Origin: Candidatus Peribacteraceae bacterium
Lineage (GTDB): Bacteria; Patescibacteriota; Gracilibacteria; Peribacterales; Peribacteraceae
Reading direction: 5' to 3'
Assembly: GCA_028699155.1 (NCBI GenBank)
Contig: JAQVVD010000002.1
Location: 25,773 to 89,772, forward strand
Length of the DNA stretch: 64,000 bases
Every line of letters starts with the position of its first letter. Position 1 is the stretch's first letter. Below the pieces are notes generated by a model that saw only the letters and a program-made list of their open reading frames with translations, did no database searches and was not told the origin of the DNA. Positions 1 through 52,208 of this stretch are shown piece after piece. The translations under genes and the position numbers were made by a program.

Positions 1-975
1 GACGAGAAGCCATAGTGCAGAAAATACCTTCCGTTTTTCTTTAATGAGTAAATATATGCATATGCATACATACAAAGGTACCCCCAAAATAAAGAACCAG
101 TGGTAGCCAATAAATGTTATCAGCTGCATTGGCTGCGAGAGAAAACTACTGAGTGATGTAATGAAATTTGTATCAAGAGTCATCCAGAAGAGGTCACTGA
201 TGTCCTGATAATTTTTAATGTATCCAATACCCAATGTATAATATGTCAAACATACAATCATTGGAATACCTACCCACATATTGCGGAGTGCAAATCTTGT
301 CGAAAAAACTTCTCTCAAATGTTTCTGCCTGAGAACAAGCAGGAAAAATACAATAATGCTGGTGGGTTTTACCAAGAGCGCCGTACTCCCCAGCAGTATG
401 GGGAAAAATATTTTTTCTCTACTCAAAAAGAGTCCAACGGCCAGTGTGCCGAGAATCATTGCAAAATAGTCTGGCATAATTTTCCCAGAAACAGATGCTG
501 CAATTGAAAATATCGGAAGAATCAGCATAGCCGGGCTGATATCTCTATTGGCAACTGTGACGCCTTTCCATGCTTTGTAATTTATCCAGCTCAAACCAAA
601 AAACATTAGGATGATCATAAGGTATGCAATGATCCTTCCGTTCTCTATCCCAAGCATAAAACTCGGCGCCAATATCAAATTGAGCAATGGAAATTCTGTT
701 GGCAGAATTCCGGTATTGTCACCGCTTTGCAATAATGCAGGTAGGTACCATGGGTTATTACTATTTTCTACTGTCCATCTAGACCAATAGCGTATCGCTA
801 TTCCTATTGTATGTAACTCCCGTGTGCCAAATGGAAGGTCGGGAGGCAACGGACTTCGAAGTATAAGAACGCCGATCCGCAAGAGCAGCAAGCCTATGGT
901 CGTAGATACAAACAGTCGCGTTATTGTTGTTCTGGTCGTTTTTGGAAACATATTCCTCATAAGGATACCATGCAT
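1..975 (-). CDS. polytopic membrane protein, C-terminus cut by window edge; possibly GT-C-type (ArnT/PMT-like) glycosyltransferase or polymerase
   Basis: Absent from supplied ORF track because it runs off the window. My own reverse-complement translation from ATG at 975 (in-frame TAA at 978-976 just upstream) is stop-free to position 1: MHGILMRNMFPKTTRTTITRLFVSTTIGLLLLRIGVLIL... with many hydrophobic helices. Co-oriented with and 64 nt downstream of gene 1040-2530. GC about 35-38% by hand count versus about 60% next door. Function call is weak. Confidence 0.6.
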   Translation of the reverse strand, partial: MHGILMRNMFPKTTRTTITRLFVSTTIGLLLLRIGVLILRSPLPPDLPFGTRELHTIGIAIRYWSRWTVENSNNPWYLPALLQSGDNTGILPTEFPLLNLILAPSFMLGIENGRIIAYLMIILMFFGLSWINYKAWKGVTVANRDISPAMLILPIFSIAASVSGKIMPDYFAMILGTLAVGLFLSREKIFFPILLGSTALLVKPTSIIVFFLLVLRQKHLREVFSTRFALRNMWVGIPMIVCLTYYTLGIGYIKNYQDISDLFWMTLDTNFITSLSSFLSQPMQLITFIGYHWFFILGVPLYVCICIYLLIKEKRKVFSALWLLV

Positions 976-1039: not shown

Positions 1040-2530
1040 CTACAATCCTGCCTCCTGCTTGCATCGTACCTCGTGCCATTTGGGGACGCCGGGTTTCGTG
1101 TCTTCAAAACTGCCGTCCACATACGGGAAACACTCATCTGTCAGCACAAATTTGAGCACTGCATCCAACTGTGTATTGCATGGGCGGAATAGGCAGGTTG
1201 TCCGCAGGAAGAACGCCAGTTTTCTTGCAAGATTCCTGCCGCCCATGTCCTTTTTACTCGCCACTTCCGCCAGTACTCTCATCTCCTTGCGGACCATGGC
1301 GAGCTCCCGTTGCAATTGCAGATATGGGTCAGATGCCTTCGCGACGATTGCCGCTTCCTTCCTCGCCTGCCGGATATTCCAGTCACGGAAGAAGATCCTC
1401 CCGAATTCCCGCATGACGCGTTCCGTGAAGGGCAGCGACTCCTCCCTCTTTTCCGCTTTTGCCTGATCGGCATCGGCCACGAATTCGTCCGGGTATTTAA
1501 AGTCATCCGCTTGTGGGCGTACCTCGCCCCAGTACGTACGCATTTCCATGAATTCCCGCGCCAGCGTCGGTTCGTCTTTCACGAAGGAGAACGGTCCCCG
1601 TTTTTCCATGCGGGTTCCCCCCATTTTGAAGAGAGCGTTCTTCAGGATTTTGCCCGTTACCTGAGACGCAGTCTCACTTGAGTCAATGCATCCGAATTTC
1701 TCTCTGTGCACGCGTGCCTGTCCCCAGTGGCTCATGTCGGGATTCTCATTCCCGGTGAACGCATTCATTTCCATGATGATGTCCTTCAAGTTCGCCACAT
1801 TCGACAGGAATTCATCCTTGCGTGCCAGTAGCGTTTCCAGCGAGGAGTACTCTTCTCCTACAGAAGCAATACTCCTCAGATTCCCCATTGCTTCCAAATC
1901 GCAGCCGTAGCCCAGCGCCGTCGGAGGGAGGTAGTTGCTGTGGAACGGGCAAACAGGATCAGGCTGTTCCTGCCCGCCGGCATTCTGCTGCGGTTCCTCA
2001 AAAATCTGTACGATATGCCACCCCTCATCGACGTACATCGGGTCATTCGCGCCCGCGAGCAGATTGCGGTATCGTTCGTTCAAGAAGCGCAACACGCCTT
2101 TCAAATACGCGATTTTGCCTATATTCACGCTGGAAGATGACAGCGTTTCACTGCTCAATTTGCAGCGCACCTTCTCCATTTCCGCCTCCAGAATGAGCAG
2201 GTCGGCAAACAGGCAGGGGGTACTCTCTCTAAATCCCCGTTCCTCCTGCGACACGCGCAGCTCCGTATCCACCAGCTCGGCGATTGCGCCCGTTACTTCG
2301 CTCAGCCACGGGAAGAACAGAGAAGCCACTTCCAGATTGACATCTGAAAAAGCCTCTGCCGCCTGAATGCCCTGCTCCGCCCGTTCGATTGCCTTCTTCG
2401 TATAGTGGCTCGAGACCGGAGTAATCCCCAAGACCGTTGCCGATACTCCGGATGGGCAACTGGCTGCCAGCGCCTCTCCCGTGAAGGAGAGGAGGCAAAA
2501 GCCGATTGCAAGGAGGAAGGGGGTTCTCAT
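1040..2530 (-). CDS. secreted hypothetical protein, 496 aa (operon gene 5)
   Basis: Longest ORF in region. Signal-peptide-like N-terminus MRTPFLLAIGFCLLSFTGEALAAS. Its ATG overlaps the upstream stop (ATGA, 2527-2530). No family recognised. Confidence 0.8.
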   Translation of the reverse strand: MRTPFLLAIGFCLLSFTGEALAASCPSGVSATVLGITPVSSHYTKKAIERAEQGIQAAEAFSDVNLEVASLFFPWLSEVTGAIAELVDTELRVSQEERGFRESTPCLFADLLILEAEMEKVRCKLSSETLSSSSVNIGKIAYLKGVLRFLNERYRNLLAGANDPMYVDEGWHIVQIFEEPQQNAGGQEQPDPVCPFHSNYLPPTALGYGCDLEAMGNLRSIASVGEEYSSLETLLARKDEFLSNVANLKDIIMEMNAFTGNENPDMSHWGQARVHREKFGCIDSSETASQVTGKILKNALFKMGGTRMEKRGPFSFVKDEPTLAREFMEMRTYWGEVRPQADDFKYPDEFVADADQAKAEKREESLPFTERVMREFGRIFFRDWNIRQARKEAAIVAKASDPYLQLQRELAMVRKEMRVLAEVASKKDMGGRNLARKLAFFLRTTCLFRPCNTQLDAVLKFVLTDECFPYVDGSFEDTKPGVPKWHEVRCKQEAGL

Positions 2531-4983
2531 TCGCGGAAAATTTCACAATCCCCGGTAGAGTTGCGGGGGCAGGCGACGGTCGGAAAAGCAGTTTCACCCA
2601 TTTGTCTTCCGAACGTGCCTGCCGCCCGGAGAAGTTCGCTGAATTCTTTCAGAGCTTTCTCCAAATACTCCCCGTAGAGCGTGGAGCCGATTCTTGTCGC
2701 GATATTCCCCACGCTTTCCTGTAAGTTCGCAGTGTCGTCTATTTGCCCTTTGTCCTGCTCGACTAAGCTTAAGGCAGTACTGAAGTACGTCTGCAAAGGC
2801 AACGAAAGGCGCTTACCCGGGCTAAAAGCGCACAGAATAGGCGGAGAGAGACGCGGCAGGCCATTCATCTGGCAGAGGAGCGTATCGAGCTGTTGCAGGA
2901 GCTCCTGTCCTCTGTAGGGCGGCAGGAAGGTACGTGTGAGCGGGGGGACGGTGACGAATGTCGCGAGCTGCGGATCCTCGTTCATGCAGGAATCCCAGGG
3001 GAAGGCTTCGTCCTGCGTGACGTAGGGAACGCGCCCCGGGATCAGCCTGTGTTCTTCCAGCGATTCTTCAATGCACTGTCCGATGTAGCAGAGATTATTC
3101 CCAATCGTATTCTCGTACTGGGCCTCGCACCCGGGGCGGCAACTTGCCCTCAGAGATTCTTTTATGGAGAGTGCGCGTCCGTCTAGGTTGGTGATCGCAT
3201 CCTGACAGCTCGGCGCATTCTCGTCTTTCAGCGCCTCAGCGAGTTCTTCCATTCTCTTTTGGTATGCCGCTTCATCCGCCGGCGGACCGGTGCAGGCGTA
3301 TTCCCAATTGCTGCAACTGTCATTTGCGAGCATGGCAGCGCACTCTTCTATAGAAATGTTGGTTGTATCCAGCAGGCCATCTTCTGCTGTTGCCTTGCAG
3401 GCGATGAGATAGGGGAGGTACTCCTTCTCGCAACAGGTTTCCCTGTTAGTCTGGGGATTGATTTCTGTCTCCGGCGGCAGGTTGCACAACTGCTGCGCAT
3501 GTATCAGCTCATGGATGATAATGTAACGGGGATCCATGATGCTGTGTTGCGTAATGGCAATGGGGATAATGCCATCAACCGTTTTTTTGTACGTCGCGCC
3601 GCCGCTTATGTCTCTACAGAAGAGATCCACGACGCAGTTCGCGCATGGTCCCGGGGAGAGCGCATTCCCGTCTTCCGCTGGGGTGTCCTTCCTTAGCTCT
3701 TCCAGATCTACAGGCGTGCGCCAGCCGCCGCGTTGGCAGATATCCGGACCAGACGCTGTTTCCAGAATCGGTGAGGCGTACGGTTTGCAGGCGGCAAGGG
3801 TTATTGCGTTCTCGTCCCCATCAAATTCCTCTCCCTGGATCGGACAATGTTCCACAAACTGTTTTCTGCACAGGTATCCTCTCTGGGCGAACGGGTGCGA
3901 ACATATGCCATGTTTGGGAGCAGGTATGGCGGGCGGTTCCGGATATATTCCGCTCAGGACAGGAGTTCCTTCAGCGTGCAGCATGGGGAGAACGGGTTCC
4001 AGGGGCATACGCCAGAGGATGCCGACGTCATCTCTCTTCACCCAGAGCACCGCATCGCTCATTCCGGGGACTCCCAGCCCCTTGACCGGGAAGACTGCTG
4101 TATCTTTCGGTCCCAAATCCACGAAATCCTCCCGCGGCAGTTTCTGCCAAATGTTGTGCATTTCTCTTTCTAAGTCGCACCATCGTTTCCCGAGCATTTG
4201 GAGGTCTGTGCCTGCATATGGATTCGCCGCATTGTTTGAGCAGCTGTAGGCGAATGATTCGGGGTCATCTTCTTCTCCCGCCAGTTGCGCCGCGCTCTTC
4301 CCTTCCATCTGAACTTCCTGGTAGCCGTTGCGGTAGCGGAAGAACGCCGCCACAAGCTCGCCATAGTCCTCCTTCTGCGTCTCTCCCGCGTTCTCTATCA
4401 TCACCATTCCGCCCAGTATTCTCTCTATTGATTGGACGTGCGGCTTGATCGTGTCCGGCAGCTCCAGCTGTTTCATGCGCACCTGGTCCACAGGATTCGT
4501 CATGCGGTCCGTGCCTGATTGCCACAGAAGCGTTGCCTTGGGCAATTTGGTTGCAATCGCGTTCTCCCTCCCCGTATGGCCATCCATCTCCGGCTCGTAG
4601 CTGGATGCAATGAGTTGCAGCTCCCTCCCCAGCGCCCGGATCCACGCTTCCTTCCTCGCCAGTTCACTCAACTGTTCGGCGAACCCTTGGCATTCGCTTA
4701 TCCACACATCCCCAACTGTCTGCGCGATATCCTCGCAGACAGTCGCGTATTTCTTCTGCAGGCTGAGATCCACATGTTTCTCCTCAACAGGGAACTTCTC
4801 ATCCCCGAGCACGAGTGGCGCAAATTTCTGTATGGGCAACTCAGATACAAAATCCTGCTGGTCATACTCTGTCATCATGCGCATCTCGTCATAGAGGGTT
4901 CCCATTCCCAGCGCGTAGGCGCCCGCCGGCAGGAGAAGCAGTGATACGCAGCCGATACTCATGAAGGTGAAACGCATGGTCAT
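2527..4983 (-). CDS. secreted Cys-rich hypothetical protein, 818 aa, with HExxH motif (operon gene 4)
   Basis: Signal peptide MTMRFTFMSIGCVSLLLLPAGAYALG. About 30 Cys by my count. HELIH (residues 491-495) encoded at 3499-3513 in context RYIIIHELIHAQQLC. ATGA overlaps at both ends (4980-4983 and 2527-2530). Confidence 0.8.
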   Translation of the reverse strand: MTMRFTFMSIGCVSLLLLPAGAYALGMGTLYDEMRMMTEYDQQDFVSELPIQKFAPLVLGDEKFPVEEKHVDLSLQKKYATVCEDIAQTVGDVWISECQGFAEQLSELARKEAWIRALGRELQLIASSYEPEMDGHTGRENAIATKLPKATLLWQSGTDRMTNPVDQVRMKQLELPDTIKPHVQSIERILGGMVMIENAGETQKEDYGELVAAFFRYRNGYQEVQMEGKSAAQLAGEEDDPESFAYSCSNNAANPYAGTDLQMLGKRWCDLEREMHNIWQKLPREDFVDLGPKDTAVFPVKGLGVPGMSDAVLWVKRDDVGILWRMPLEPVLPMLHAEGTPVLSGIYPEPPAIPAPKHGICSHPFAQRGYLCRKQFVEHCPIQGEEFDGDENAITLAACKPYASPILETASGPDICQRGGWRTPVDLEELRKDTPAEDGNALSPGPCANCVVDLFCRDISGGATYKKTVDGIIPIAITQHSIMDPRYIIIHELIHAQQLCNLPPETEINPQTNRETCCEKEYLPYLIACKATAEDGLLDTTNISIEECAAMLANDSCSNWEYACTGPPADEAAYQKRMEELAEALKDENAPSCQDAITNLDGRALSIKESLRASCRPGCEAQYENTIGNNLCYIGQCIEESLEEHRLIPGRVPYVTQDEAFPWDSCMNEDPQLATFVTVPPLTRTFLPPYRGQELLQQLDTLLCQMNGLPRLSPPILCAFSPGKRLSLPLQTYFSTALSLVEQDKGQIDDTANLQESVGNIATRIGSTLYGEYLEKALKEFSELLRAAGTFGRQMGETAFPTVACPRNSTGDCEIFRE

Positions 4984-5765
4984 TTCAGGTCACGCATGGG
5001 ATCTTTGGCATCCCACGCGCGCGGGAGGCAGGCAGATGCTTCTGCCGCCGCCGCGAGAGCATTGCGGAAATCTTTGGTGGCTCTGTCAAAACACTCCACT
5101 TCCATCTCCAGAGACCGCAGCCTGCCGTAACCGTTCAGCAGCAGCAATACCCGGTTGAGCGAGGTGCGGGAGACCGCAATTTCGTGCCGGATCTTGCGTT
5201 CCTGTTTCTGGAATTCCCGGAACACGTTTCCCCACCACAGGATGGCGTCTTTCTGCCCATAGATTGCCTGCATTTCTTTCATGACATCCCCGAAGAGGTA
5301 GAAGTATCGTCCCACCAGCGCACACTCATACATTCTCAGGTGTTCCAGCAGCACGGTGTTCGTGTCCATGTAGCTGAGTTGCGCCAAATCCTGAGGGTCT
5401 TCCCAGGGGGGAAGCTGTCCCGCCAGCGCCAGCATGTTTCTTCCTGCGGGCAACAGGGTTTCCAGCGAGTCGCTCAGGCAGTCGATTTCGGAGCCGTCCA
5501 TCGATCGGTATTCTTCCACGATCACATTGACTCTCTCGTTGTATTCTCTGCTCCAAATATCAATCACATCTTCCTCTCCCTCCCCCAGTTCCTGCGGAGG
5601 AACCCATCGGAAGAGATTCAGGTGCTCGCTCCTTCCGCATGCGCCCAGAATCGGGTAATGGTCCTCAGGATTTCCTGCAGAGAACTGCGCCGTGAGATGA
5701 GGGGACTTTCCCTGCAAGAATGTCACTGCCAGCAATGCAAGCAGGATGCCGGTCAGCAGCCCCAT
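4980..5765 (-). CDS. secreted/membrane-anchored hypothetical protein, 261 aa (operon gene 3)
   Basis: Hydrophobic N-terminus MGLLTGILLALLAVTFLQG. Its stop overlaps the downstream start (ATGA 4980-4983). Lies 25 nt after the upstream gene. Confidence 0.75.
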   Translation of the reverse strand: MGLLTGILLALLAVTFLQGKSPHLTAQFSAGNPEDHYPILGACGRSEHLNLFRWVPPQELGEGEEDVIDIWSREYNERVNVIVEEYRSMDGSEIDCLSDSLETLLPAGRNMLALAGQLPPWEDPQDLAQLSYMDTNTVLLEHLRMYECALVGRYFYLFGDVMKEMQAIYGQKDAILWWGNVFREFQKQERKIRHEIAVSRTSLNRVLLLLNGYGRLRSLEMEVECFDRATKDFRNALAAAAEASACLPRAWDAKDPMRDLK

Positions 5766-5790
5766 CTTTCTCGCCGGTGAATGACAGGGA

Positions 5791-6780
5791 TTACTTGGTA
5801 TCTTCTATAGGGGAAGCGTCACAGTTGCCCAGGAAGCAGGGGATGCGGTTGTACTGGCCGATGATGTTGGTTGCCTGGCGGATGGTGAACGTGAGCGGCC
5901 ATTTGAGCTCCTGCAGAGACAGGTCGAAATTCCCTGCGAACTGCAGGATGGTGCGGTATGCCGCATCATACTCCACGGCGAATTTCAGCAGATCTGCCTC
6001 GCGGCGCAGCATCTCATTCCCGATGAGAATGCAGTATCGCTGCACTCTTGCCGCCTCCGATTCCTGCCGCTCTTCTATCGCAAAACGGCAGGCAGGAATG
6101 AGCATCCGCTCTTCCGGCAGGCAGCCGGGAACGTTCAGTTGCGCCGATGGTTCCGTGGTGGCAATGGAAGCGTTGACAGTATCGCAAACGTACTGCGTTC
6201 GGCACTGGAAGGTGCGCATGCTGGAGACCAGGAATGGAATGAGCTCCGATGTGAGCATTCGCTGCGTGTCGAAAATCCCGCGCCTTGCCTCCAGCTCCGA
6301 GCTGGTCCCATCGGTTTTTCCCTCATCGAATTCCATGTCTTCATCCTTTTGGAAACTCAGAGCCGTTTTCCAGCCATCCAACGTTTTGAACCACAGAATG
6401 CCGCTCTCGTCCGAGAAGGTCGTACCGATAGGCGCCCGTGCCGCGGCATCCGGGTCCATGCCAAACGCCTCTGCCGCTTCCGCATCACTTTTCTTCGTAT
6501 CCTGGCTTCCCTTTCCAGAAAGAGACGCCCAGTTCTTCTCTCCCCTCACATTCTTTACTTTGATCCAGGGATCCCCATCTTTGTCGAATTTCACCTTACC
6601 CAATGTCGCCCCCGTAGCCGATGGTTCCCCAAAGAGCACTGCGCGATAGAAACGTTGTTCTTTTGCGAGTTGGTCATGCACGGCGTTCTTGCAGAGGTCT
6701 TCGCTCGCCTGTGCTGCGCAGAGTGCAGGGAGCAATCCCGCTGCCAGCAAACATCCGGTATACAGCAGACGTTTTCTCAT
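5791..6780 (-). CDS. secreted hypothetical protein, 329 aa (operon gene 2)
   Basis: Track ORF 5791..7026 trimmed to the internal ATG at 6780, which gives signal peptide MRKRLLYTGCLLAAGLLPALCAAQA and overlaps the upstream stop (ATGA 6777-6780). The 82-aa extension upstream has no signal peptide and overlaps gene 6777-9842. Confidence 0.75.
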   Translation of the reverse strand: MRKRLLYTGCLLAAGLLPALCAAQASEDLCKNAVHDQLAKEQRFYRAVLFGEPSATGATLGKVKFDKDGDPWIKVKNVRGEKNWASLSGKGSQDTKKSDAEAAEAFGMDPDAAARAPIGTTFSDESGILWFKTLDGWKTALSFQKDEDMEFDEGKTDGTSSELEARRGIFDTQRMLTSELIPFLVSSMRTFQCRTQYVCDTVNASIATTEPSAQLNVPGCLPEERMLIPACRFAIEERQESEAARVQRYCILIGNEMLRREADLLKFAVEYDAAYRTILQFAGNFDLSLQELKWPLTFTIRQATNIIGQYNRIPCFLGNCDASPIEDTK

Positions 6781-9700
6781 CTCTCTTCTTTGGAAGGGGC
6801 GAATAGGAGCACGATTTCCACGGGGATATCGAACGAAACAACGACTTCTGCTGGCGGGCTCTGCAAATTGATACTCCTGGTGAGCGACTGCTCTATCATC
6901 TCGCTGCGGAGTCTGCCGATGAATTTCTCCTGCTCCTCTTCCGGCGGATAGCCGATTTCCCATCCGGCTTTCGCAAATGTTTGCTGCGGGTTCAGCAGGA
7001 CGCAAGCCCAGTCTTCCTTCTGGCATTCCAGCGGCTTGCGGAATTCTCCTGCAGAGAGGAAGTCCTCTTTCAGGAGAACGGCGGGGCGCGCGCCAATTCG
7101 GGTAAAGCGCTCAATCAGGTCCACTTCCACATGCCTGCATCGACCGGAGTTCGGACTCGCGCAGTCCAGTTCTTTCTGGTCTTTCACCTCGTGGAGCGTC
7201 TTCCAGAATACGGCGTACTCCTCGTCCATTTCCTCAATCACCTCGCGGATTTTTACCATTTGTTCCTTCGTCTTCGCAATGTCTATAGGCCAGTCTGGCG
7301 CTTGAACCATGGGCGGCAGATTCCTGCCTACCTCCACTTCCGGCACCTTCTCGCCGATGTCATCCGCGATCGAAGGAATGGGCGGGAGCGGCTGGAGTTT
7401 TGGGAAGGGCGGGTCGGGATTGTGATCACTGGGTGGTCGCAGGGCATCTGCGTTATAACTGATTTGTATCGGTTCCAGTACAGGAATGGCAATCGCACCG
7501 GTGGCGAGATGGAGCCTCGTGAGGTCGAAGACAAGATCCGGCGAGAGCATCCCTTGGAGAGTAGGGAGCCTCTTTGTCTCATCCGGATAACCATTTTCCA
7601 GTAGAGCGTCATTCTTCAGGTTTGGCCTGCCCGGCATCCACGGATCAAGCAGCGAGTAGATCGGCGTGGTGAAGCGATCGTTGCGGCACCACTGCAAATT
7701 GGTATCGTCATGGAAGTGCCGATAGGCTGCCTGTACTTTCTCCCACTCGGTTTTGAGATCCGCCATCGCCTGGCTGTTGCGCGTTTCCTGCCATGCGAAG
7801 AAGGTTTCCATAGTATCGAGCGCCCACCTGCCGACGTGCTCATTCATTTCATTATGGATTTTCAGATATTCCGCAAGGTAGCTGCTCAGTTCGGCTCGCA
7901 GTTGGCGATAGTCATCAATGCGATCCGCATACTCAGCCAGCCGATCCAGGAGTTTCTGTAAGTCGCCGCCGGCGTTCTCGCAGCTCTCCTCCTTGTTCTG
8001 GAATTTGTACCAGTGGCACCAGCCTTCCCGCAGCGCGCGCAGCTCCGTGGCGGAACCAAGGGGTACAGCGATCGGGATGCGCTCCTGCTCCACTTGCAGC
8101 AGGAGTGATTTTTCCAGGAATTCCGCTATCTCTCCCAGCAGGTCTTCGCGCAGTTCCAGCTGGATCTCTATCGGCTGCAAGAGCGTATTCTCCTTCCATT
8201 CGGCCAGTTCCTCCTCGGCAGGTTTCGTGATGAAGATCGGCTGGAGTGGGTCTAGGTCTATGGACCACGCTGGAGGCACCATGATTCGCAGCACCGGCGG
8301 GGTGAAGATTTTATTGCCTTCAGTCTGTTGTTCCTGCCACCACTCGACCAGTGTTCGTTTCAGGTTGGATTTTTCCGATTCTATCGGGTCGGTTGCAACC
8401 GTCTCATCGAATGCGCGGATGAGCGAGCCGCTTGAGACTGGTTTCTCCTCCGTCATTTGCACGGTGGCTCTCTGGTACTTGGACGGCATTTCCAGGAGAT
8501 GCACATCATCCGGCCCTCCATCATCCTCCAGATCATTGCGCCAGATTGTCATCTCTCCCTCCTGCGGCTCCTTCCCAAATGCGGGATCGGGGAAATCCAT
8601 ATCTTCCGCTGTTTCCCCTTTGCCTATCTGCGACGTGCGCATCCGTTCAATGGAAATATCCCTGTTACGGGAGATATCAATGACGCAATGTTTATCCTTT
8701 CGCATCACGATGCGCAGGCGCGGGTCGAACTCTGAATACCGTCCGTAGCAGCGGACAGCAATGCCGCCCTCCGCGTTGTTGTCTTTCGGTACTTCCGGTT
8801 TCACAGCATCCCGCGTGTAGGAGGCGGCTACATAGTTTCGATAGAAAGAAATGTACTGGCGCGATTGAATGTACTTTCTCTTCTTTCCATTCGGAAGTTC
8901 CGGTCCCTCCGTCACATCGGAAACAGGAATCTGCGCCCACGAAGGCGCTCTGCCGACACGGCAACCTGTTTCGTTAAAATTCCCCTTTGGCATGCGACCG
9001 AGCGTATTTCCGTGGGAATCTTGTGCGATAGCGCCCGGCGGGTCCACTGCCGCCCCATCTCCCTCGCATCGCAGACAGTTGCGGTTTGCATCCGGATGGC
9101 TCAGGCAGGCAGATCCTCCTTCGTTGCACGCTTCGTAATTCAATTGGGTGACAAGGACATTCGTGCAGCAGTAGAACCAACCGACGAACGTCACGCCGCC
9201 ATTGCAGTCCTGGGAGTTGGCTTCTGGCGGGCGGGATGGTTCATCCCGTGGGTTATTCCCCGTGTGTTCCTGGCATTCCTTACGAGGATATGTCACTGAT
9301 ACATTCCCCTCGTAATCAATCTTCACACATTGCCATTTGGGATACTGCCATCGATTTATCCTTGCACAGAGCTGCTGGCACTCGTTTGGATTTGCACACG
9401 GTGTTTTGCTGCTGGTATCCACGTAGTACGGCGGATTCCCCGGCCGGCAGGCAGTCGTCCATCCCAGGACGTTGTACCTGTCCGGGAACTGGTAGCCGTC
9501 ATTCAGTAATTGCCCCGTCTCCTCCCGCTCCGCCATTCCAAGCGTGATAAGCGCAAACGGATCCCCCTCCCTTCCGGGAAGACCCGAAACATCCGCGATG
9601 GTTTCTTCCGCGGATTTTTCCACATTCCATCCGCCGCACTGCGCCTGGTTTATATAGCTCTGCAATGCACTTACTGATTGTTCGACATTCTGGAATGTGT

Positions 9701-9842
9701 TCGGTGGATACGTCTTGTCCTTCAAGTCAAAGGTCGCGGCTTGTGCCGTATTTGCCAGGGGTACTCCTGCCAGAGTCCCGCCCAACACAAGGATGAGTGT
9801 TCTCTGGAGGATGGCGGCTCTGATTCCACGGCAGTGTGCCAT
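6777..9842 (-). CDS. large secreted hypothetical protein, 1021 aa, Cys-rich N-terminal third (operon gene 1)
   Basis: Signal peptide ...LILVLGGTLAGVPLANTAQAAT. About 17 Cys between residues 60 and 400. Long acidic/helical C-terminal part. First gene after the 215-bp intergenic region 9843-10057. Confidence 0.8.
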   Translation of the reverse strand: MAHCRGIRAAILQRTLILVLGGTLAGVPLANTAQAATFDLKDKTYPPNTFQNVEQSVSALQSYINQAQCGGWNVEKSAEETIADVSGLPGREGDPFALITLGMAEREETGQLLNDGYQFPDRYNVLGWTTACRPGNPPYYVDTSSKTPCANPNECQQLCARINRWQYPKWQCVKIDYEGNVSVTYPRKECQEHTGNNPRDEPSRPPEANSQDCNGGVTFVGWFYCCTNVLVTQLNYEACNEGGSACLSHPDANRNCLRCEGDGAAVDPPGAIAQDSHGNTLGRMPKGNFNETGCRVGRAPSWAQIPVSDVTEGPELPNGKKRKYIQSRQYISFYRNYVAASYTRDAVKPEVPKDNNAEGGIAVRCYGRYSEFDPRLRIVMRKDKHCVIDISRNRDISIERMRTSQIGKGETAEDMDFPDPAFGKEPQEGEMTIWRNDLEDDGGPDDVHLLEMPSKYQRATVQMTEEKPVSSGSLIRAFDETVATDPIESEKSNLKRTLVEWWQEQQTEGNKIFTPPVLRIMVPPAWSIDLDPLQPIFITKPAEEELAEWKENTLLQPIEIQLELREDLLGEIAEFLEKSLLLQVEQERIPIAVPLGSATELRALREGWCHWYKFQNKEESCENAGGDLQKLLDRLAEYADRIDDYRQLRAELSSYLAEYLKIHNEMNEHVGRWALDTMETFFAWQETRNSQAMADLKTEWEKVQAAYRHFHDDTNLQWCRNDRFTTPIYSLLDPWMPGRPNLKNDALLENGYPDETKRLPTLQGMLSPDLVFDLTRLHLATGAIAIPVLEPIQISYNADALRPPSDHNPDPPFPKLQPLPPIPSIADDIGEKVPEVEVGRNLPPMVQAPDWPIDIAKTKEQMVKIREVIEEMDEEYAVFWKTLHEVKDQKELDCASPNSGRCRHVEVDLIERFTRIGARPAVLLKEDFLSAGEFRKPLECQKEDWACVLLNPQQTFAKAGWEIGYPPEEEQEKFIGRLRSEMIEQSLTRSINLQSPPAEVVVSFDIPVEIVLLFAPSKEER

Positions 9843-10057
9843 GGTTGCTATAGTACTAAAAAAATGGCTAGTTTAAGCTATAACGCCTCTTGACGGATAG
9901 TCGCTTGCGATTGCAATCTTCATTTGTCCGGCAATATCTTCTTCTGGGGTGCAACTCATTTCGTTTTGTCATAACGAGGCATGCGGTGTACATTCGTTCA
10001 CATCTGCGGTAGGACATTTGTTCGAGGCATCCTTTACTTCCATCCCCCATTCGTCGC

Positions 10058-10930
10058 ATGTATTCCTATAACCGCGTTCACATCATCGGCTATCAGACGC
10101 AACCCGTTGAGCTTCGCCAGACGCCCAGCGGAACCAGTGTTACTGATCTGAACATTGTTGTTCCCTATGCGTTCACGTCGGAATCAGGCGAGCAAATTAC
10201 AGGCAAAGCGTTCCATACCGTGACCGTATGGGGATCTATGGCAGACATCGCCGGGCAGTATATCAAGCCGGGTGCGCAGGTATTCATCGGCGGGCGTTTG
10301 CAGACGGACAGCTGGGAAGATGAGCAGTCCGGCGAGAAGCGATCCAAAACGAAAATCGTTGCCATGGATATGATTTTGCTCGATCCAAAAGATGGACAGT
10401 TGCCCGCTGAGGAGGGTGCATCCATCATACATGGCATTAACCGCGCTGAAATCGTCGGGAATATCACGCGCGACCCGGAAGTCCGCACGACGACAAGCGG
10501 GCAACAGGTCGTGTCGCTCGGCGTTGCTACCAATGATCGTTGGCGCGATAAAGCCAGCGGAGAGGATCGTGAGCGTGCCGAATTCCACAATGTCGTCGTG
10601 TGGGGCGCTCTGGCGCAGCAGGTCAGCCAGCATATGAAGAAGGGCTCTAGAATTTACGCTACGGGTCGCGTGCAAACCCGGAGCTGGGAAACGCAGAGCG
10701 GAAGCAAGCGGTACACGACAGAGATTATTGCCGAAGATCTGGCTCTGTTGGGCGTGGCGCATTCCGGAGTCGTGGATGCCATCCAATCCTCCGGAGCGCC
10801 TGTTCGTGCGGCATCCAAAACAAGTGGCGCGGCTCCCCAACACGCCTCGGGCGCAGAGCCCGTCCCTGTTGGCTCTGTTCCGGAAGTGAAGTATGAGTCA
10901 GAGGTGAAAGTGGAGGATCTGCCGTTCTAA
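10058..10930 (+). CDS. ssb: single-stranded DNA-binding protein with two tandem OB folds
   Basis: Two SSB-like OB units in one chain (YNRVHIIGYQTQPVELRQTPSG...RLQTDSWED and INRAEIVGNITRDPEVRTTTSG...RVQTRSWET). Low-complexity tail ending in an acidic tip, VEDLPF. Confidence 0.85.
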   Translation: MYSYNRVHIIGYQTQPVELRQTPSGTSVTDLNIVVPYAFTSESGEQITGKAFHTVTVWGSMADIAGQYIKPGAQVFIGGRLQTDSWEDEQSGEKRSKTKIVAMDMILLDPKDGQLPAEEGASIIHGINRAEIVGNITRDPEVRTTTSGQQVVSLGVATNDRWRDKASGEDRERAEFHNVVVWGALAQQVSQHMKKGSRIYATGRVQTRSWETQSGSKRYTTEIIAEDLALLGVAHSGVVDAIQSSGAPVRAASKTSGAAPQHASGAEPVPVGSVPEVKYESEVKVEDLPF

Positions 10931-10950
10931 TCCTTCATCTTTCTTCTTTC

Positions 10951-11835
10951 TCATTGGGCGCATTCCGCGTTTCCTGTCGTGGAACCATCCTGCGAATACA
11001 GCCGCATTTCCACATCCAACGGTTCCACGACAGCAGTGCGAATTTCCCGGATGGCACGTTCCACATCACAGAATGTCGCTTCTCCCGTATTCAGGAGAAA
11101 ATTCGCGTGCTTCTCGCTGACTTGTATCCCTCCAAATTTTTCTCCTTTCAGATTTGCACGATCAATCAGTTGCCATGCCGGCGTTTTTCCTACGGCCTTG
11201 AAGCATGAGCCGGCAGTTTTTCTATGAGGTTGCGTCTCCATGCGCTTTCGCAAGAGACGCTCTATATCTGCCTGCACTTCCTTTGCCGGGCGCCGTGGAA
11301 CGCGCAATGTGGCGCGCCAGATAATTGGTGCCCCTTTCATCTCTTTGAATACGCTTCCGCGGTACGAAAACTCGCAATCTTCCCGTGAAAACGTTTTCCA
11401 TTTCCCCTCTACAAATACCGTTACGGATTGCACGAATGTATCCATCCACACGCCATTGGGACCCTGACCGGCATTCCCAAAAACAGCTCCTCCCACCATG
11501 CCGGGGATTCCTGTGAGTGCGGACAAATCCAATCCGTTCTCTGCGAGCTCATTCAGCAACATCGCAAGGTTCTTCCCGGCTTCCACGATTACCGTATCAC
11601 CTTCAATCTTCACATCACCTGCACCGATGCGTGCAACCAATGCATTGACCGTTCCATCCGCGAAGACCGTATTTGATCCTCCGCCCAGCACAATGAGCGG
11701 TACATGTAATTCTTGGGCTTTCCTCCACGCTTCTTCTACATCATTTTCAGATGCGATTTCGGCATAGTAACGCGCATTCCCTCCGATTCGCATAGTGGTT
11801 TTACTGCCGAGAGGAACATTCTCTTGTATCTCCAC
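10951..11835 (-). CDS. murB: UDP-N-acetylenolpyruvoylglucosamine reductase
   Basis: MurB-like sequence over the full length (TTMRIGGNARYYAEI, LGGGSNTVF, GSCFK, SEKHANFLLN). GTG start. Confidence 0.85.
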   Translation of the reverse strand: MEIQENVPLGSKTTMRIGGNARYYAEIASENDVEEAWRKAQELHVPLIVLGGGSNTVFADGTVNALVARIGAGDVKIEGDTVIVEAGKNLAMLLNELAENGLDLSALTGIPGMVGGAVFGNAGQGPNGVWMDTFVQSVTVFVEGKWKTFSREDCEFSYRGSVFKEMKGAPIIWRATLRVPRRPAKEVQADIERLLRKRMETQPHRKTAGSCFKAVGKTPAWQLIDRANLKGEKFGGIQVSEKHANFLLNTGEATFCDVERAIREIRTAVVEPLDVEMRLYSQDGSTTGNAECAQ

Positions 11836-11856
11836 GCAACCAGTTTAGCAGAGGAG

Positions 11857-12324
11857 CTACTTCTTCGAGAGCAAGCCCGAGAGCTTTTCCATCGTTTCCA
11901 GCAGCTTTTCACTCTTGTTTTTCCGCTTCATCTTCATGAGGGCGGCGGCGAGAATGGCAAGCCCCAGCAAGCCGCCAGCAATGATCAGCAGCTCACGCGT
12001 GCTGAGCGTGATCTCTAACCCAACCAGCAATACAAGCTGCAGAGCCGCGAGGACGAATATCCCGGCGAGCACACCCGTCCCCATCGTAGTGAGGACGAGT
12101 TGCGACTTATTTTCCTGTGTATCCTGCGGTGCGCTGGCGAGGCCCGTTAGCAGTTCGCTGCTCACAATGACCGCATCGTTCCCCCATTCTTTGAAGAGCG
12201 TCGTCACCTTGCGTTGCAGGACGAGCATGACGAATGTTTTAAATGAAACAGACGTCTTGCCTGCGATCACCGCCTTGCTGTCGCCTGCTTTGATTTCCAC
12301 CTCGATATCTTCATGGTTTGTCAT
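11857..12324 (-). CDS. hypothetical membrane protein, 155 aa
   Basis: ORF between gltX and murB on the same strand. C-terminal hydrophobic helices (GVLAGIFVLAALQLVLLVGL, LLIIAGGLLGLAILAAALM). Confidence 0.6.
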   Translation of the reverse strand: MTNHEDIEVEIKAGDSKAVIAGKTSVSFKTFVMLVLQRKVTTLFKEWGNDAVIVSSELLTGLASAPQDTQENKSQLVLTTMGTGVLAGIFVLAALQLVLLVGLEITLSTRELLIIAGGLLGLAILAAALMKMKRKNKSEKLLETMEKLSGLLSKK

Positions 12325-13917: not shown

Positions 13918-14487
13918 CTACAGATCCACATTGAATATGATCGGTTCAAGAGGTTTGTCCTGCTCATCCGTTGCTATTCTCGCAATAGCATCCACTGTCT
14001 CCATTCCATGCGTCACTCTGCCGAAGATGGTGTGTTTCTCCTGTAGCCATGGAGTTCCACCCTTTCTCTGGACGATGAAAAATTGGCTCAAATTCGAATT
14101 GCGCCCCTTATTCGCCATGGCTATGACTCCTCTGGTCATCCGCAAGTCATTCTGTTCATCCTCAAACGGCTGTCCAAAAATACTGGCTCCTCCAGTGCCG
14201 TCGCCACTGGGGTCTCCTCCCTGAATAACAAAGCCGTCAATTGCGCGATGGAATGTGAGCCCGTCATAGAATCCGCTCTTTGCCAGTTCCACGAAGTTCG
14301 TGACAGCTTTCGGTGCCTTATCTGCATACAGCTCGATTTGTATTTCGCCGAGCGTGGTCTGTATTGTTGCGGCGTATGTGCCGCTGAGAAGGGAAGTGGG
14401 ATATGCGCTGGCGGCATTGTGCATTCCCGAATCAGAAGCACACCCTGCGAGCACCATTGAGAGACCAATTAGAAGGGATCTCCTCAT
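13918..14487 (-). CDS. cyclophilin-type peptidyl-prolyl isomerase, lipoprotein
   Basis: Lipobox MRRSLLIGLSMVLAGCAS. Cyclophilin motifs FHRAIDGFVIQGGDP, GTGG, MANKG. Confidence 0.85.
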   Translation of the reverse strand: MRRSLLIGLSMVLAGCASDSGMHNAASAYPTSLLSGTYAATIQTTLGEIQIELYADKAPKAVTNFVELAKSGFYDGLTFHRAIDGFVIQGGDPSGDGTGGASIFGQPFEDEQNDLRMTRGVIAMANKGRNSNLSQFFIVQRKGGTPWLQEKHTIFGRVTHGMETVDAIARIATDEQDKPLEPIIFNVDL

Positions 14488-14492: not shown

Positions 14493-15554
14493 CTACAGCG
14501 TAGATCCCTTCTGTTTTTTCGACAACGTTTCTTCTAGAACCCGGCAGATCCTCTCCGCTGCGTCTGGCTGGTGCAGTCGTCGTATTCTTTCAGAAAGACC
14601 CAACCTTTCCCCCTCGTCCTGTGCGACTCTTTCTAAGAGCGGGAGAAGGTTTTCCTGCAGAGCCGATTGTTGTAGGAGAATGCATCCTCCTTTGTTCGCC
14701 GCATATTCCGCATTCTTCTGCTGGTGGTCGTGTCCCACTCCCCGCAATGGAACCAAAATACCGGGGATGCCATTGGCCGCGAGCTCCCCGATGCTGCTGG
14801 CTCCCGCTCGGCTTAGAGCCACGTCTGCAATTGCGTACAAGTGTTTCAGTTCTTCTCTCACAAATGGGCGCGACCAGTATCCTGCCTGAGTATTTGCGCC
14901 CTCTTTTCCCCTTCCTGTGATGTGGATTACGTCAACTGACTTTTGCATCTCACAAAGAAGCTGCAGAACGGCCCGATTCAAGGATTCAGCTCCCTGGCTT
15001 CCCCCCATAACAAGCAGGATGGGGCGCGTGCCGGAAAAGCCGGTGATCCGCAATCCTTCTTCACGACTCCCCGATGTAGCATCAGCGCGCACAGGATTGC
15101 CGGTGTAGACGTGTTTCCCCCCGTCTCTCTCCGGCTGGAATCCCATGCATACGGCAGTTGCCCAACGGGCGGTGAACCGATTAGCATTTCCGCTCACCAC
15201 ATCGGATTCGTGCAGGATAATCGGAATCTGTCTCCAGTGCGCTGCGAGACAAACGGGTACACTCACATACCCGCCCTTACTCAAGAGAATGTCCGGCTTC
15301 TCCTGTTCTATGAGTTGAGCCGCATCGCGATATGCCAGGAAGAATTTCCACAGAAAATTCCAGGACAGTTTCGGCGCACGTACGGCAGTCCAGTCCAGAT
15401 GCTCTTTCCTTAAAAATTCGCTGTCATCCTCTCGTTCCGAGCAGACGAAATGCGCCTGCGCTCTGGGGTGAGCGCCCAGGAATTCCTGCCACACAGCCAC
15501 TGCCGGCGCGATATGCCCTATGGAACCGCCGCCGACAAAGAGGATTCTGCACAC
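14493..15554 (-). CDS. murG: undecaprenyldiphospho-muramoylpentapeptide beta-N-acetylglucosaminyltransferase
   Basis: ILFVGGGSIGHIAPAVAV N-terminus, LLVMGGSQGA, SRAGASSIGELA. Adjacent to ftsW. Confidence 0.85.
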   Translation of the reverse strand: MCRILFVGGGSIGHIAPAVAVWQEFLGAHPRAQAHFVCSEREDDSEFLRKEHLDWTAVRAPKLSWNFLWKFFLAYRDAAQLIEQEKPDILLSKGGYVSVPVCLAAHWRQIPIILHESDVVSGNANRFTARWATAVCMGFQPERDGGKHVYTGNPVRADATSGSREEGLRITGFSGTRPILLVMGGSQGAESLNRAVLQLLCEMQKSVDVIHITGRGKEGANTQAGYWSRPFVREELKHLYAIADVALSRAGASSIGELAANGIPGILVPLRGVGHDHQQKNAEYAANKGGCILLQQSALQENLLPLLERVAQDEGERLGLSERIRRLHQPDAAERICRVLEETLSKKQKGSTL

Positions 15555-15606: not shown

Positions 15607-16785
15607 TTACAGCTGCAGCGTTCTTCTGCTCTTTCGCCTCTCCCGCACAGCTTCCTCGGTTGAGTACATTGAAATATTCAGGAGCACTCCCACTCCCATG
15701 AGCAGCGCGAGGAGGGAAGAGCCGCCATAGCTGATGAATGGAAGTGTAATACCCGTGAGAGGGAAGAGCGAAACATTCACTGCGATATTGAGGATGGTTT
15801 GGACAGCTACCCACGTAGTGATGCCGGTTGCAACCAGGAAGCCGAATCGGTCCGGCGCCGTGCGTGCGATGTGGTACCCTCTCCACACGAAGATGCTGTA
15901 CATACCCAGGATGATCAGGAGCCGTACAAAGCCCAGTTCTTCCGCCATTGCCGCGAAGATTGTGTCTGCCTGTACCTCCGGGAGATAGCCGAATTTCTGT
16001 ACGGATTTCCCGTATCCCACCCCAAAGAATCCGCCGCTGCCAATAGCGATGAGCGCCTGTTTGATCTGGAAGCCGATTGATTCCGCAATAGATGGATCGT
16101 TCGGAGAGACGAATGCGCGGAACCGATTACGGATATAGCTCTTATTCAGGATAATTGGCAGACCAAGTATCCCCGCGATGGCTCCGCCCAGCAGCATATG
16201 GAGCACGTTTCCTCCTGCAATGAAGAACATCGTAATTGCTATTCCCGAGAGGACCAGAAACGAACCGAGATCCGGCTGAAGCGCCACAAGAATCGTGCTG
16301 ATAATCAGCAGCGTAGCGAATGGGAGAAATCCTTCCTTCATCGTGCCTACCAATTGCTCTCTTTTCTGGAGCCAGACTGCGAGGTAGAAGACGAGCGTGA
16401 GTTTCAGGAATTCCGATGGCTGTATGGAAGGCAGAAAGCCGATTCGCAGCCAGCTGTGTGCGGTTCCGTAATCTGCTCCGATGCCCGGGATAAATACTGC
16501 CATCAGGAGCAGGAGCGTTATTCCAAACAGGGGGAGCGCCAGTTTTTTCCAGGTGTGGTATGGGATAACCATAATGACGCACATTGCCGCCAGTCCGGTA
16601 AATGTATGCACCGAACTGCGAATCAAATAGAACGAATTGCCCGGGATATCGCGCACGCCCTGATCCACCAGTCGTTGTGTGATTTGGTAACTCTCAAACA
16701 CGCTGACGCTGGCGATCATCGCAAGCCCGAAGAATGCGAGAACGACGGTAATGCCGCAGAGGAGAAGGTCGAGTCGCTTGAACAA
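15607..16785 (-). CDS. ftsW: SEDS-family cell-division/elongation protein FtsW/RodA
   Basis: Ten-helix-like profile. Motifs QPSEFLKL, GSGGFFGVGYGKS, LPEVQADTIFA, TGITLPFISYGGSS. TTG start in the track, so the start is uncertain. Confidence 0.85.
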   Translation of the reverse strand: MFKRLDLLLCGITVVLAFFGLAMIASVSVFESYQITQRLVDQGVRDIPGNSFYLIRSSVHTFTGLAAMCVIMVIPYHTWKKLALPLFGITLLLLMAVFIPGIGADYGTAHSWLRIGFLPSIQPSEFLKLTLVFYLAVWLQKREQLVGTMKEGFLPFATLLIISTILVALQPDLGSFLVLSGIAITMFFIAGGNVLHMLLGGAIAGILGLPIILNKSYIRNRFRAFVSPNDPSIAESIGFQIKQALIAIGSGGFFGVGYGKSVQKFGYLPEVQADTIFAAMAEELGFVRLLIILGMYSIFVWRGYHIARTAPDRFGFLVATGITTWVAVQTILNIAVNVSLFPLTGITLPFISYGGSSLLALLMGVGVLLNISMYSTEEAVRERRKSRRTLQL

Positions 16786-30550: not shown

Positions 30551-32021
<1,471 letters not shown>

Positions 32022-32264: not shown

Positions 32265-32321
32265 AGCCAGATAAGGATAGTGTCTCTCTCTGCTTGGTCA
32301 AGGTAAATTCCCGCAGTTTTC

Positions 32322-33416
32322 TTACTTTTTTCTGCTTCTCTTTGCATCCAGCCACGCGGCGAGTGGGACGGTAATCGTTCGCGGGAGGAATGTTTCCTGG
32401 AAGAGTTTGCGCCCGCTTTCCGCGATTTTCTGCCGCATTTCCATATCTCCTTTGAGCTCCAGAATGGCTTCCGCCAGTGCCGCAGCATCTCCCGGCTTCG
32501 TGAGTATGGCATTCGTTCCATGGAGCAGAGCAGAACGTGCTGCAGGCGTATCACCCGTGATGAGCGGTTTCCCCATACAGAGGATGTCATACACCTTGTG
32601 CGGGATCACACGCTGCGCTTTCTCCGATGTTCCGAATATACCCAGGCACATGTCTGCATCTGCGATGGCTTCCGCCAATTCTTCCATCGGCTGGTACGGT
32701 GCGAACGCAACGTTCTCCAGGTGCAACACCTCTGCGAGGCGTCGTATTTCTTCGTAGGTTTGTCCTCCGCCGATAATGTGGAATTTCACCGTAGGATCTC
32801 TCCTTTGCACTTCTGCGGCAGCATGGAGAATTATCTCTATTCCCTGCAGAGGAATGAATGTTCCATGAAAGAGCACGGTGCACGTATCGGCTCCATGTTC
32901 ACGTGAGGGCTGCGGCTGGAACACGTCCGTTCTGCACCCGACCGGCAACACCAGTATTTTTTCCGTTTGGATTCCGTACCGTTCCACGAAGTACTGCTTC
33001 TGCAATTCAGTATCGATCAATATAACATCCGCCAGAGTGCAGCTCAGCCAATCCATGAACGACAATGTGCGTGCGTGCAGGCTGCCCGCGGGGACGGATT
33101 TTCTGTCTTCCACATTCGTGTCATACAGGGACACAAACACGTCAAATACGATCGGTTTCCCTGTGATTCTGCCCAGCAGCCATGCGAGCGGCATGACGTA
33201 GTGGCCGGGGAATGGCACGAACATCACATCAATCTGTTTTCGCAGTTTCCAGTACTTCCCGCAGAGGTCTCTGTACTTCGCGAGGAAGCCGCGTTTCTGC
33301 GTGCTGCATTCGATGACATCGAATCCGCGTTCTTTCAGGCCGGTTGCGATTACCCAGTAACGTGCGCCGCCCAGAAAGTCATACCCGAATGCGCAGATGG
33401 TCATACTGTTCTTCAT
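32322..33416 (-). CDS. GT4-family (GT-B) glycosyltransferase
   Basis: Track ORF trimmed to ATG 33416 (MKNSMTICAFGY...). The extension is a read-through of the palindromic intergenic repeats. C-terminal half is typical of group-1 GTs (FHIIGGGQ, VIPHKVYDILCMGKPLITGDT). Confidence 0.75.
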   Translation of the reverse strand: MKNSMTICAFGYDFLGGARYWVIATGLKERGFDVIECSTQKRGFLAKYRDLCGKYWKLRKQIDVMFVPFPGHYVMPLAWLLGRITGKPIVFDVFVSLYDTNVEDRKSVPAGSLHARTLSFMDWLSCTLADVILIDTELQKQYFVERYGIQTEKILVLPVGCRTDVFQPQPSREHGADTCTVLFHGTFIPLQGIEIILHAAAEVQRRDPTVKFHIIGGGQTYEEIRRLAEVLHLENVAFAPYQPMEELAEAIADADMCLGIFGTSEKAQRVIPHKVYDILCMGKPLITGDTPAARSALLHGTNAILTKPGDAAALAEAILELKGDMEMRQKIAESGRKLFQETFLPRTITVPLAAWLDAKRSRKK

Positions 33417-33444
33417 TGTTGCTAGTAGAGTAAATCCAAAGCAT

Positions 33445-33497
33445 GAAATCCGAAATTCGAAACTGTCTCGAATTTCGTGCTTCGAATTTCGGATTTC
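33445..33497. promoter_or_regulatory. nested palindrome (candidate operator) in divergent GT4/GT4 promoter region
   Basis: 17-nt perfect inverted repeat GAAATCCGAAATTCGAA (33445-33461) / TTCGAATTTCGGATTTC (33481-33497). A third copy of the core TCGAATTTCG sits at 33468-33477. All lie inside the 95-bp spacer 33417-33511. Confidence 0.6.
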
Positions 33498-33511
33498 TCT
33501 ATCCTTCTTGT

Positions 33512-34675: not shown

Positions 34676-34706
34676 GACCTCTAAAAAAACACTGAATTGG
34701 CACAGT

Positions 34707-45941: not shown

Positions 45942-45992
45942 TGAAACAGTCTTCCTTTCTCCTCGTTCTGCTTCATATTTACTGATAAGCTC

Positions 45993-50265: not shown

Positions 50266-50303
50266 GGTCTAAGTATGACAAAAAGCATACTCTCCGCCTA
50301 CGA

Positions 50304-52075: not shown

Positions 52076-52208
52076 GAAGTAGAGATAATTATAAACATAT
52101 CAATTCTATAATCCGCGCGAAAATTTACTAATTTTTTTCACAGTATTTCAAAAATTATACAATGAAATTGTATTCGTTCAATTCCTTCTGCCATATATCA
52201 TACAGCCA

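Follow-up and report, generated by a model that had tools for sequence, protein, structure and literature searches.

Five consecutive genes, here called A to E, in a 64,000-nt stretch of a Candidatus Peribacteraceae genome (assembly GCA_028699155.1, contig JAQVVD010000002.1, positions 25,773 to 89,772 of the forward strand; hereafter the window) form a translationally coupled operon of cysteine-enriched proteins with signal-like N-termini. On present evidence, these proteins represent five orphan families that belong to no described system and are categorically new, both as families and as a gene set. We propose, with a probability of roughly 0.45, that the five products assemble into a hetero-oligomeric complex in the wall zone, at the outer face of the cytoplasmic membrane, and that this complex would be part of the core inherited equipment of the Peribacteria rather than an accessory or host-specific feature. 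The source lineage is Peribacteraceae, in the class Peribacteria of the Peregrinibacteria, within the candidate phyla radiation (CPR). CPR bacteria account for a large share of bacterial diversity and their genomes are full of conserved hypothetical proteins; to our knowledge, almost nothing has been characterised of their cell surfaces, through which their dependence on other organisms must be mediated. An 8.8-kb set of five exported proteins that occupies one locus in every related genome found, and for which no relative was detected among curated families or solved structures, is thus a concrete and bounded target, and the operon is a testable candidate for a lineage-defining envelope structure. 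Its genes, junctions and upstream region are as follows.

6777-9842, minus strand: gene A, open reading frame (ORF) of 1021 amino acids (aa)
6777-6780, minus strand: ATGA stop/start overlap of A and B; the same 4-nt overlap is found in 17 of 42 other loci
5791-6780, minus strand: gene B, 329 aa, counted from the ATG at 6780
5766-5790, minus strand: 25-nt spacer between B and C, with a purine-rich candidate ribosome-binding site (GAGAAAG) at its 3' end
4980-5765, minus strand: gene C, ORF of 261 aa
4980-4983, minus strand: ATGA stop/start overlap of C and D; the same 4-nt overlap is found in 22 of 46 other loci
2527-4983, minus strand: gene D, ORF of 818 aa
2527-2530, minus strand: ATGA stop/start overlap of D and E; the same 4-nt overlap is found in 31 of 46 other loci
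1040-2530, minus strand: gene E, ORF of 496 aa
9843-10057, no strand assigned: divergent intergenic region of 215 nt between gene A (minus) and ssb (plus)

A preliminary description of this DNA had reported five minus-strand genes joined by three ATGA overlaps and one 25-nt gap; the ORF list and our reading of the junctions agree with it at these coordinates. Its reading of the set as one operon with translational coupling is strengthened by the recurrence of the 4-nt overlaps in other genomes. The spacing between B and C is -8 to +5 nt in most other loci. Although the longest ORF for gene B spans 5791-7026 (411 aa), its homologues are 254-332 aa long and carry a signal peptide at the very start, which places the start of B at the ATG at 6780 and gives the 329-aa product. 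The promoter of the operon presumably lies in the candidate region 9843-10057; no sigma-70-like site was found on the minus strand of this region, and a promoter and terminator scan returned sites no more common than in shuffled sequence.

The operon is a stable feature of its lineage. Named homologues come from metagenome-assembled genomes (MAGs) of Candidatus Peribacteraceae and Peregrinibacteria, and when the D profile was run against one genome for each GTDB species, 62 loci were recovered, nearly all labelled Peribacteria, Peribacterales or Peregrinibacteria. All ORFs of these loci were translated and set against the window proteins. Wherever the flanking sequence is long enough, A-B-C-D-E are preceded by GltX, a membrane protein of 155 aa, MurB and an SSB encoded on the opposite strand, in that order, and in about 50 of 57 loci dnaE lies immediately downstream of E. 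Family B was the seed for an independent search of JGI metagenomes, which added 44 further contigs with the same arrangement, and in the complete genome of Ca. Peribacter riflensis the set corresponds to genes 963-967 (1030, 279, 263, 821 and 521 aa), all annotated as 'hypothetical protein' (PMC4736985). Far from being confined to this genome or disrupted in its relatives, the five genes are therefore intact, ordered and co-occurring in the 62 GTDB species representatives and the 44 metagenome contigs, wherever the sequence extends far enough. The operon is single-copy and was never seen in pieces in the loci compared; the window holds no paralogue of any of the five genes, and comparison of the families by hhalign did not detect paralogy among them. 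The operon is vertically inherited in the Peribacteria. Identity to the window proteins ranges from 25 to 58% for A-E, from 55 to 77% for GltX and SSB, and mostly from 52 to 62% for MurB. Corrected distances are 1.1-1.5 substitutions per site for A-E versus 0.46-0.73 for the neighbouring housekeeping genes, so that the operon evolves about two to three times faster than its neighbours, a rate that would be as expected for extracytoplasmic proteins. One contig from a MAG labelled Kiritimatiellales (JAIPIN010000018.1, locus L031) carries a full Peribacteria-type SSB and A-E set, and is probably a binning contaminant.

The preliminary description could place none of the five proteins in a recognisable family, and our searches bear this out. 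Neither Pfam nor NCBIfam gave a match to the five proteins at E<=1, and a Pfam search of 195 homologues taken one by one from all five alignments revealed no recurrent family. PHROGs gave no match, PADLOC only noise (E>=0.01), and profiles of the five families, run with hmmsearch on PDB sequences at E<=10, only chance matches. An exhaustive HMMER search of 1.84 billion representative sequences with the D profile returned 288 proteins; among the 150 of these that were listed, most are 750-950 aa long, with a second group of about 630-690 aa and some fragments. On this search, D looks like a self-contained family rather than a branch of a wider superfamily. Profile and motif scans likewise agree with the earlier statement that pilin, S-layer, ATPase, secretin, sortase-signal and repeat hallmarks are missing from the set. 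Structure models add some detail. The AlphaFold2 model of D (mean pLDDT, the predicted local distance difference test, 61.8) is confident at residues 40-125, 170-345 and 431-610. That of A is poor (mean pLDDT 49.1) and was built from 11 sequences, a profile-seeded protein search for A having given the same 10 sequences; it has a cysteine-rich N-terminal half of mixed beta structure and a helical C-terminal half with a predicted helix of about 89 residues (627-715). The most conserved motifs fall in poorly modelled regions, namely residues 614-720 of D ('YENTIGNNLCYIGQCIEES...RLIPGR') and residues 715-747 and 902-930 of A ('TNMPWC.NDRFTTPIYSLLD.W.PGR' and 'CVHVEMDL.ERF.RIGARPAV'). These conserved regions that stay unfolded in the models may be subunit interfaces, or the alignments may be too shallow, and we take them as a hint only.

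Orphan families in a single block might also point to a mobile, viral, toxin or defence cassette. A low-GC segment adjoins gene E in the window, and one homologue has a sub-threshold match to a zincin associated with extracellular contractile injection systems (eCIS). This explanation is effectively refuted: the operon sits at the same chromosomal locus in all genomes examined, the PHROGs and PADLOC searches gave nothing beyond noise, and no relatives were found when 2.9 million viral contigs were scanned with D and E. The GC content of the operon, 0.54-0.56, matches that of the genome, whereas the low-GC ORF at 1-975 lies outside the operon and is unique to this genome.

The cysteine content of the five proteins points to folding outside the cytoplasm. 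Cysteine makes up 2.77% of A-E (81 of 2925 residues) and 0.81% of eight housekeeping proteins in the same window, a 3.4-fold difference, with 1.9-3.7% in the individual proteins; the label 'Cys-rich' given to them earlier is accurate, but the enrichment is only moderate. Conserved cysteines number 14 in A, 8 in B, 5 in C and 8 in E, while D has 30 cysteines and 23 conserved cysteine columns. Counted after the hydrophobic core of each signal peptide, totals are even in 39 of 46 homologues of B (most commonly 8) and in 42 of 46 of E (most commonly 14, 16, 18 or 22), and odd in 33 of 43 homologues of C (most commonly 5) and in 52 of 54 of D (most commonly 25, 29, 31 or 33). Totals thus shift in steps of two with parity kept, as would follow from the gain and loss of cysteines two at a time, as disulfide partners, and this pattern supports what would be oxidative folding and disulfide bonding outside the cytoplasm. 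Since odd counts are confined to C and D, the products of adjacent and overlapping genes, the simplest reading is one intermolecular disulfide between them, and we put forward such a C-D bond as a prediction.

The N-termini fit the same picture. All five window proteins begin with a hydrophobic core (11-mer Kyte-Doolittle score 2.2-3.0), followed by AxA-type sites in A (AQA|A), B (AQA|S), D (AYA|L) and E (ALA|A). Gene C encodes an N-terminal hydrophobic helix without an AxA site, and among its homologues some have a cleavable signal, others an uncleaved anchor, and two a lipobox-like sequence; C may therefore be a membrane-proximal or tethered subunit. A hydrophobicity scan found no internal transmembrane segment in the five window proteins, with the exception of a weak hydrophobic stretch at residues 997-1016 of A (19-mer Kyte-Doolittle score at least 1.6), near a C-terminus that ends ...LLFAPSKEER. 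Nor do the five proteins contain an LPxTG motif (LP.[TSA]G) or a lipobox. Across the homologues, N-terminal hydrophobic segments are kept in all five families and internal transmembrane segments are nearly absent, so the earlier claim that all five are exported holds on this heuristic call. Coupled junctions and signal peptides that persist in dozens of divergent homologous loci are more than chance would give. A gene for the export motor lies in the same window.

18982-21702: SecA gene

D is the only member of the set with a recognisable catalytic signature, an HExxH...E zincin-like motif that the preliminary description had passed over in this 818-aa protein.

3154-3693, minus strand: zincin-like domain of D, residues ~431-610, supported by motif conservation and predicted secondary structure
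3499-3513, minus strand: HELIH, residues 491-495 of D, the HExxH motif
3421-3423, minus strand: Glu521 of D, candidate third zinc ligand

In the alignment of D, HELIHAQQxC (residues 491-500) is nearly invariant and Glu521, 26 residues after H495, is conserved. In the model, where this domain has a pLDDT of 72-88, strands at 451-478 are followed by a helix (485-500) that carries HExxH and by a second helix (514-534) that carries Glu521, a layout that fits that of a small gluzincin; Glu521 would then be the third zinc ligand. What weak matches the searches gave for this domain all pointed to zincins. Sub-threshold Pfam matches were to M76, M91, YgjP-like and eCIS_core (E=0.003-0.17; 12-18 bits versus cut-offs of 22-26). 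Foldseek placed four IrrE/ImmA (M78) proteins among the best 40 BFVD matches to D, the top one weak at E=0.15, with a probability of 0.89 and a TM-score on the target of 0.47; in the PDB, the second-ranked match was an M61 peptidase, also weak (E=1.1). For this one domain of D, the nearest molecular analogy is the minimal gluzincin fold. D shares with the gluzincins M78 (ImmA/IrrE), M76 and M91 an HExxH on a predicted helix that follows a small beta-sheet, and a glutamate on the next helix; in IrrE the ligands are His82, His86 and Glu113, with a spacing of 27 residues. Known M78 proteins are cytoplasmic regulators, whereas the D domain is embedded in an exported protein and laced with invariant cysteines (C500, C517, C518 and C529). 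A further difference lies in the fate of the ligands. The HExxH motif is intact in 49 of 54 species representatives, a figure biased by the use of HExxH as one of the two search patterns in that scan. Among about 123 wider homologues, H491 is kept in 88, E492 in 85, H495 in 92 and E521 in 100; in the unbiased search, the ligands are thus kept in about 70% of sequences and lost in about 30%, whereas conservation of the flanking cysteines approaches 100%. Among the 150 of 288 matches listed, about 19 homologues, 630-690 aa long, do without the whole HExxH domain. Motif conservation suggests that in most lineages the domain probably acts as a peptidase or forms a metal site, and its loss of ligands in about 30% of homologues, together with its deletion in a subgroup, indicates that it is not essential to the assembly. 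Several D variants stand out individually. Short, domain-less forms include P0081, P0089 and P0105, and P0081 (in L067, at 10001-11929, and in L068) belongs to an A-E operon that is normal apart from the reduced length of A (925-957 aa) and E (469 aa). In P0013 (L004), KELVV replaces HExxH. Some D homologues have large lineage-specific insertions, and P0004 (1029 aa) appears to duplicate part of the cysteine-rich peptidase-like region.

Given these features, we propose a model in which stop/start coupling, itself observed at the junctions, would yield the subunits in linked amounts, and Sec, including the SecA encoded in the window, would export them by way of signal peptides identified heuristically. 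The signal peptides of A, B, D and E would be cleaved, and C would stay close to the membrane through its uncleaved helix or, in some lineages, a lipid anchor. Outside the cytoplasm, the subunits would fold oxidatively and be stabilised by disulfides, as their cysteine parity suggests, with C and D each retaining one unpaired cysteine and being joined by the predicted C-D disulfide. In most lineages, the zincin-like domain of D would bind zinc and trim a partner subunit or an envelope substrate, in maturation or turnover. Candidate roles for such a complex are an envelope scaffold, wall or surface-layer biogenesis, uptake and contact with another cell. The idea of one extracellular assembly had already been raised in the preliminary description; it gains support from cysteine parity and from the confinement of odd counts to C and D, and is still a reading of the sequences. 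A bolder version, which we consider doubtful, is that the operon encodes an unrecognised envelope machine: five families without relatives outside the Peribacteria, held together by disulfides that include the C-D bond, and indispensable to a whole CPR lineage. Such a machine could be a structure for lipid or peptide uptake in auxotrophic cells, or a dock for a partner.

The products could instead be five co-regulated but independent secreted proteins that form no stable complex, engaged for example in nutrient scavenging led by a metalloprotease. The HExxH...E of D would suit such a role, as would the suggestion that Peribacteria take amino acids from external proteins (PMC4736985). We find this distinctly improbable, since it does not account for the invariant co-occurrence and order of the genes, their coupled stop and start codons, or the restriction of odd cysteine parity to the adjacent C and D. 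Moreover, about 30% of homologues no longer have the motif, one subgroup has dispensed with the domain yet retains the complete five-gene set, and the other four proteins are without enzyme signatures.

The lineage has a record of exported cysteine-rich proteins, a point that the preliminary description had passed over (PMC4736985). The Ca. P. riflensis genome paper (Anantharaman et al.) noted an unusual investment in large proteins of this kind, for which attachment was proposed; its Table S4 lists 20 of them, with 2.4-11.4% cysteine (about 5-11% for most, and 7.2 +/- 2.4% for a 14-gene cluster) and a mean length of 1655 aa (PMC4736985). The proteins of this published set bear weak labels as pappalysin or Myxococcus Cys-repeat proteins and differ from strain to strain. 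The A-E proteins resemble this set in coming from the same lineage and in being exported, enriched in cysteine, clustered and not assigned a function. They differ from it in their lower cysteine content (2-3.7%), the absence of repeats and their one-to-one conservation across the class. Membership of the hyper-Cys-rich set was considered and rejected, as genes 963-967 are absent from Table S4 and have no repeat or pappalysin match; the 14-gene cluster likewise consists of other genes.

This comparison bears on the leading rival, first suggested in the preliminary description, in which the operon would encode a surface apparatus that attaches to a host or partner cell in an episymbiotic lifestyle. 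The proteins are exported, rich in disulfides on the evidence of parity, and two to three times faster in evolution than their housekeeping neighbours; a symbiotic life has been inferred for the Peribacteria, in which many biosynthetic pathways are missing, and attachment has been proposed as the role of their large cysteine-rich exported proteins (PMC4736985). We nevertheless judge this explanation improbable. The operon is single-copy, has a fixed five-gene architecture and is alignable at full length across the class; it is inherited vertically at one housekeeping locus and is without the variation in copy number or domains that is usual for host-range determinants. Library scans found no repeats and no lectin, Ig, FN3 or other adhesin domain, and the five genes are not among the hyper-Cys-rich variable proteins of the Peribacter paper. 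Its presence in every related genome found, its single copy and fixed architecture, and the lack of repeats and adhesin domains together favour core envelope machinery over a host-specific adhesin.

Among known envelope machines, the type IV pilus, the type II secretion pseudopilus and sortase-assembled pili likewise consist of several exported subunits encoded in a fixed order with coupled translation, a pattern that implies assembly beyond the membrane. The operon differs from them in that it encodes no ATPase, secretin, platform protein or sortase, and the profile searches matched none of their components. Three specific assignments were rejected. Type IV pilins and pseudopilins do not fit, as the N-termini are Sec-type with AxA sites, show no class III (prepilin) signal peptide and gave no pilin profile match. 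Sortase-anchored proteins do not fit either, as there is no LPxTG and the lone C-terminal hydrophobic stretch, in A, is weak. S-layer and S-layer homology (SLH) proteins were set aside because Pfam and NCBIfam gave no such match in the window proteins and none was found in the 195 homologues.

A different function in the envelope is suggested by the genes upstream of the operon and on its strand.

10951-11835, minus strand: MurB
14493-15554, minus strand: MurG
15607-16785, minus strand: FtsW

The operon could encode an extracytoplasmic cell-wall or division module that works with FtsW, MurG and MurB and replaces missing parts of the divisome or of the peptidoglycan-remodelling machinery. Together with an exported cyclophilin, these genes keep the same arrangement in other genomes, the universal presence of the operon fits an essential process, and D carries a metallopeptidase-like motif. 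On balance we regard this as quite improbable. The divergent ssb separates the operon from MurB, and dnaE follows it, so the surroundings amount to a general housekeeping island with lineage-wide synteny; the searches found no similarity to a known peptidoglycan hydrolase, penicillin-binding protein or divisome protein, and the peptidase-like domain is dispensable.

Several points weigh against the proposed core envelope complex or the evidence offered for it. (i) Context and coevolution. Gene order is conserved over the whole neighbourhood throughout the lineage, so that adjacency to cell-wall and replication genes says little; a functional link to ssb or dnaE was dropped for the same reason. 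The evolutionary distances of A, D and E are correlated with one another more strongly than the housekeeping control would account for (partial Mantel r 0.59-0.75 versus at most 0.59 in controls, with MurB distances too noisy to be used in this mirror-tree analysis), a signal that overlaps the controls and is at most weakly suggestive. (ii) Cysteine parity. In A, counts are even in 26 of 40 homologues, which is not significant (most commonly 22 and 24). The binomial p-values for parity, 1.6e-13 in the case of D, ignore phylogenetic relatedness and so overstate significance; the differing totals, as we read them, show many independent events despite that relatedness. (iii) Export. Signal peptides were scored heuristically, by hydrophobicity and AxA sites. 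(iv) The peptidase-like domain. The zincin assignment rests on a short motif and sub-threshold matches, and among curated peptidase family profiles no family reached threshold for D. (v) Structure. Foldseek gave no match at E<0.001 for the models of D and A in the PDB or BFVD, and none at E<2 for A in the PDB, but with models this mediocre (mean pLDDT 61.8 and 49.1) the absence of structural matches is weak evidence. Better models, including multimer predictions and a search of the AlphaFold DB, might still tie the operon to a known system.

The proposed complex makes predictions from sequence alone: export through Sec, paired cysteines in B and E, a disulfide between C and D, and a dispensable zincin domain in D. 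An essential complex would define the Peribacteria envelope and provide a clean lineage marker, whereas a purely structural scaffold of the wall zone would be mainly of taxonomic interest.

Several neighbouring genes deserve mention in their own right. The cyclophilin-type peptidyl-prolyl isomerase (13918-14487, minus strand) lies between murG and gltX with conserved synteny. Its signal resembles that of a lipoprotein (…LAGC|ASD), so that the enzyme is probably exported and could act as a folding catalyst for exported proteins such as A-E. The SSB at 10058-10930 (plus strand) is a 290-aa protein with two SSB/OB-fold domains (Pfam), an arrangement best known from Deinococcus-Thermus, and it neighbours the operon in all loci at lengths of 286-349 aa. 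Between gltX and murB, the 155-aa membrane protein (11857-12324, minus strand) has a sub-threshold match to holin superfamily III (Phage_holin_3_6, E=4e-4) and is found at the same position in most related genomes with 44-72% identity. Downstream of E, the low-GC (0.47) ORF at 1-975 (minus strand) encodes a multi-pass membrane protein with no Pfam match and no homologue in 66 related loci, and looks like a lineage-specific insertion or rearrangement. Farther away, a complete 16S rRNA gene occupies 30551-32021 (minus strand); Rfam found no 23S or 5S rRNA and ARAGORN no tRNA in the 64 kb, and the rRNA genes appear to be unlinked. A surface-polysaccharide block extends over approximately 32300-34700, 44400-47500 and 50000-56200, and includes GT1 and GT4 glycosyltransferases, a fusion of NeuB (sialic-acid synthase) with a cupin, a capsule synthesis protein and a GT28-GNAT fusion; the low GC content (0.40-0.47) of its 50-56 kb stretch suggests horizontally acquired glycan genes.

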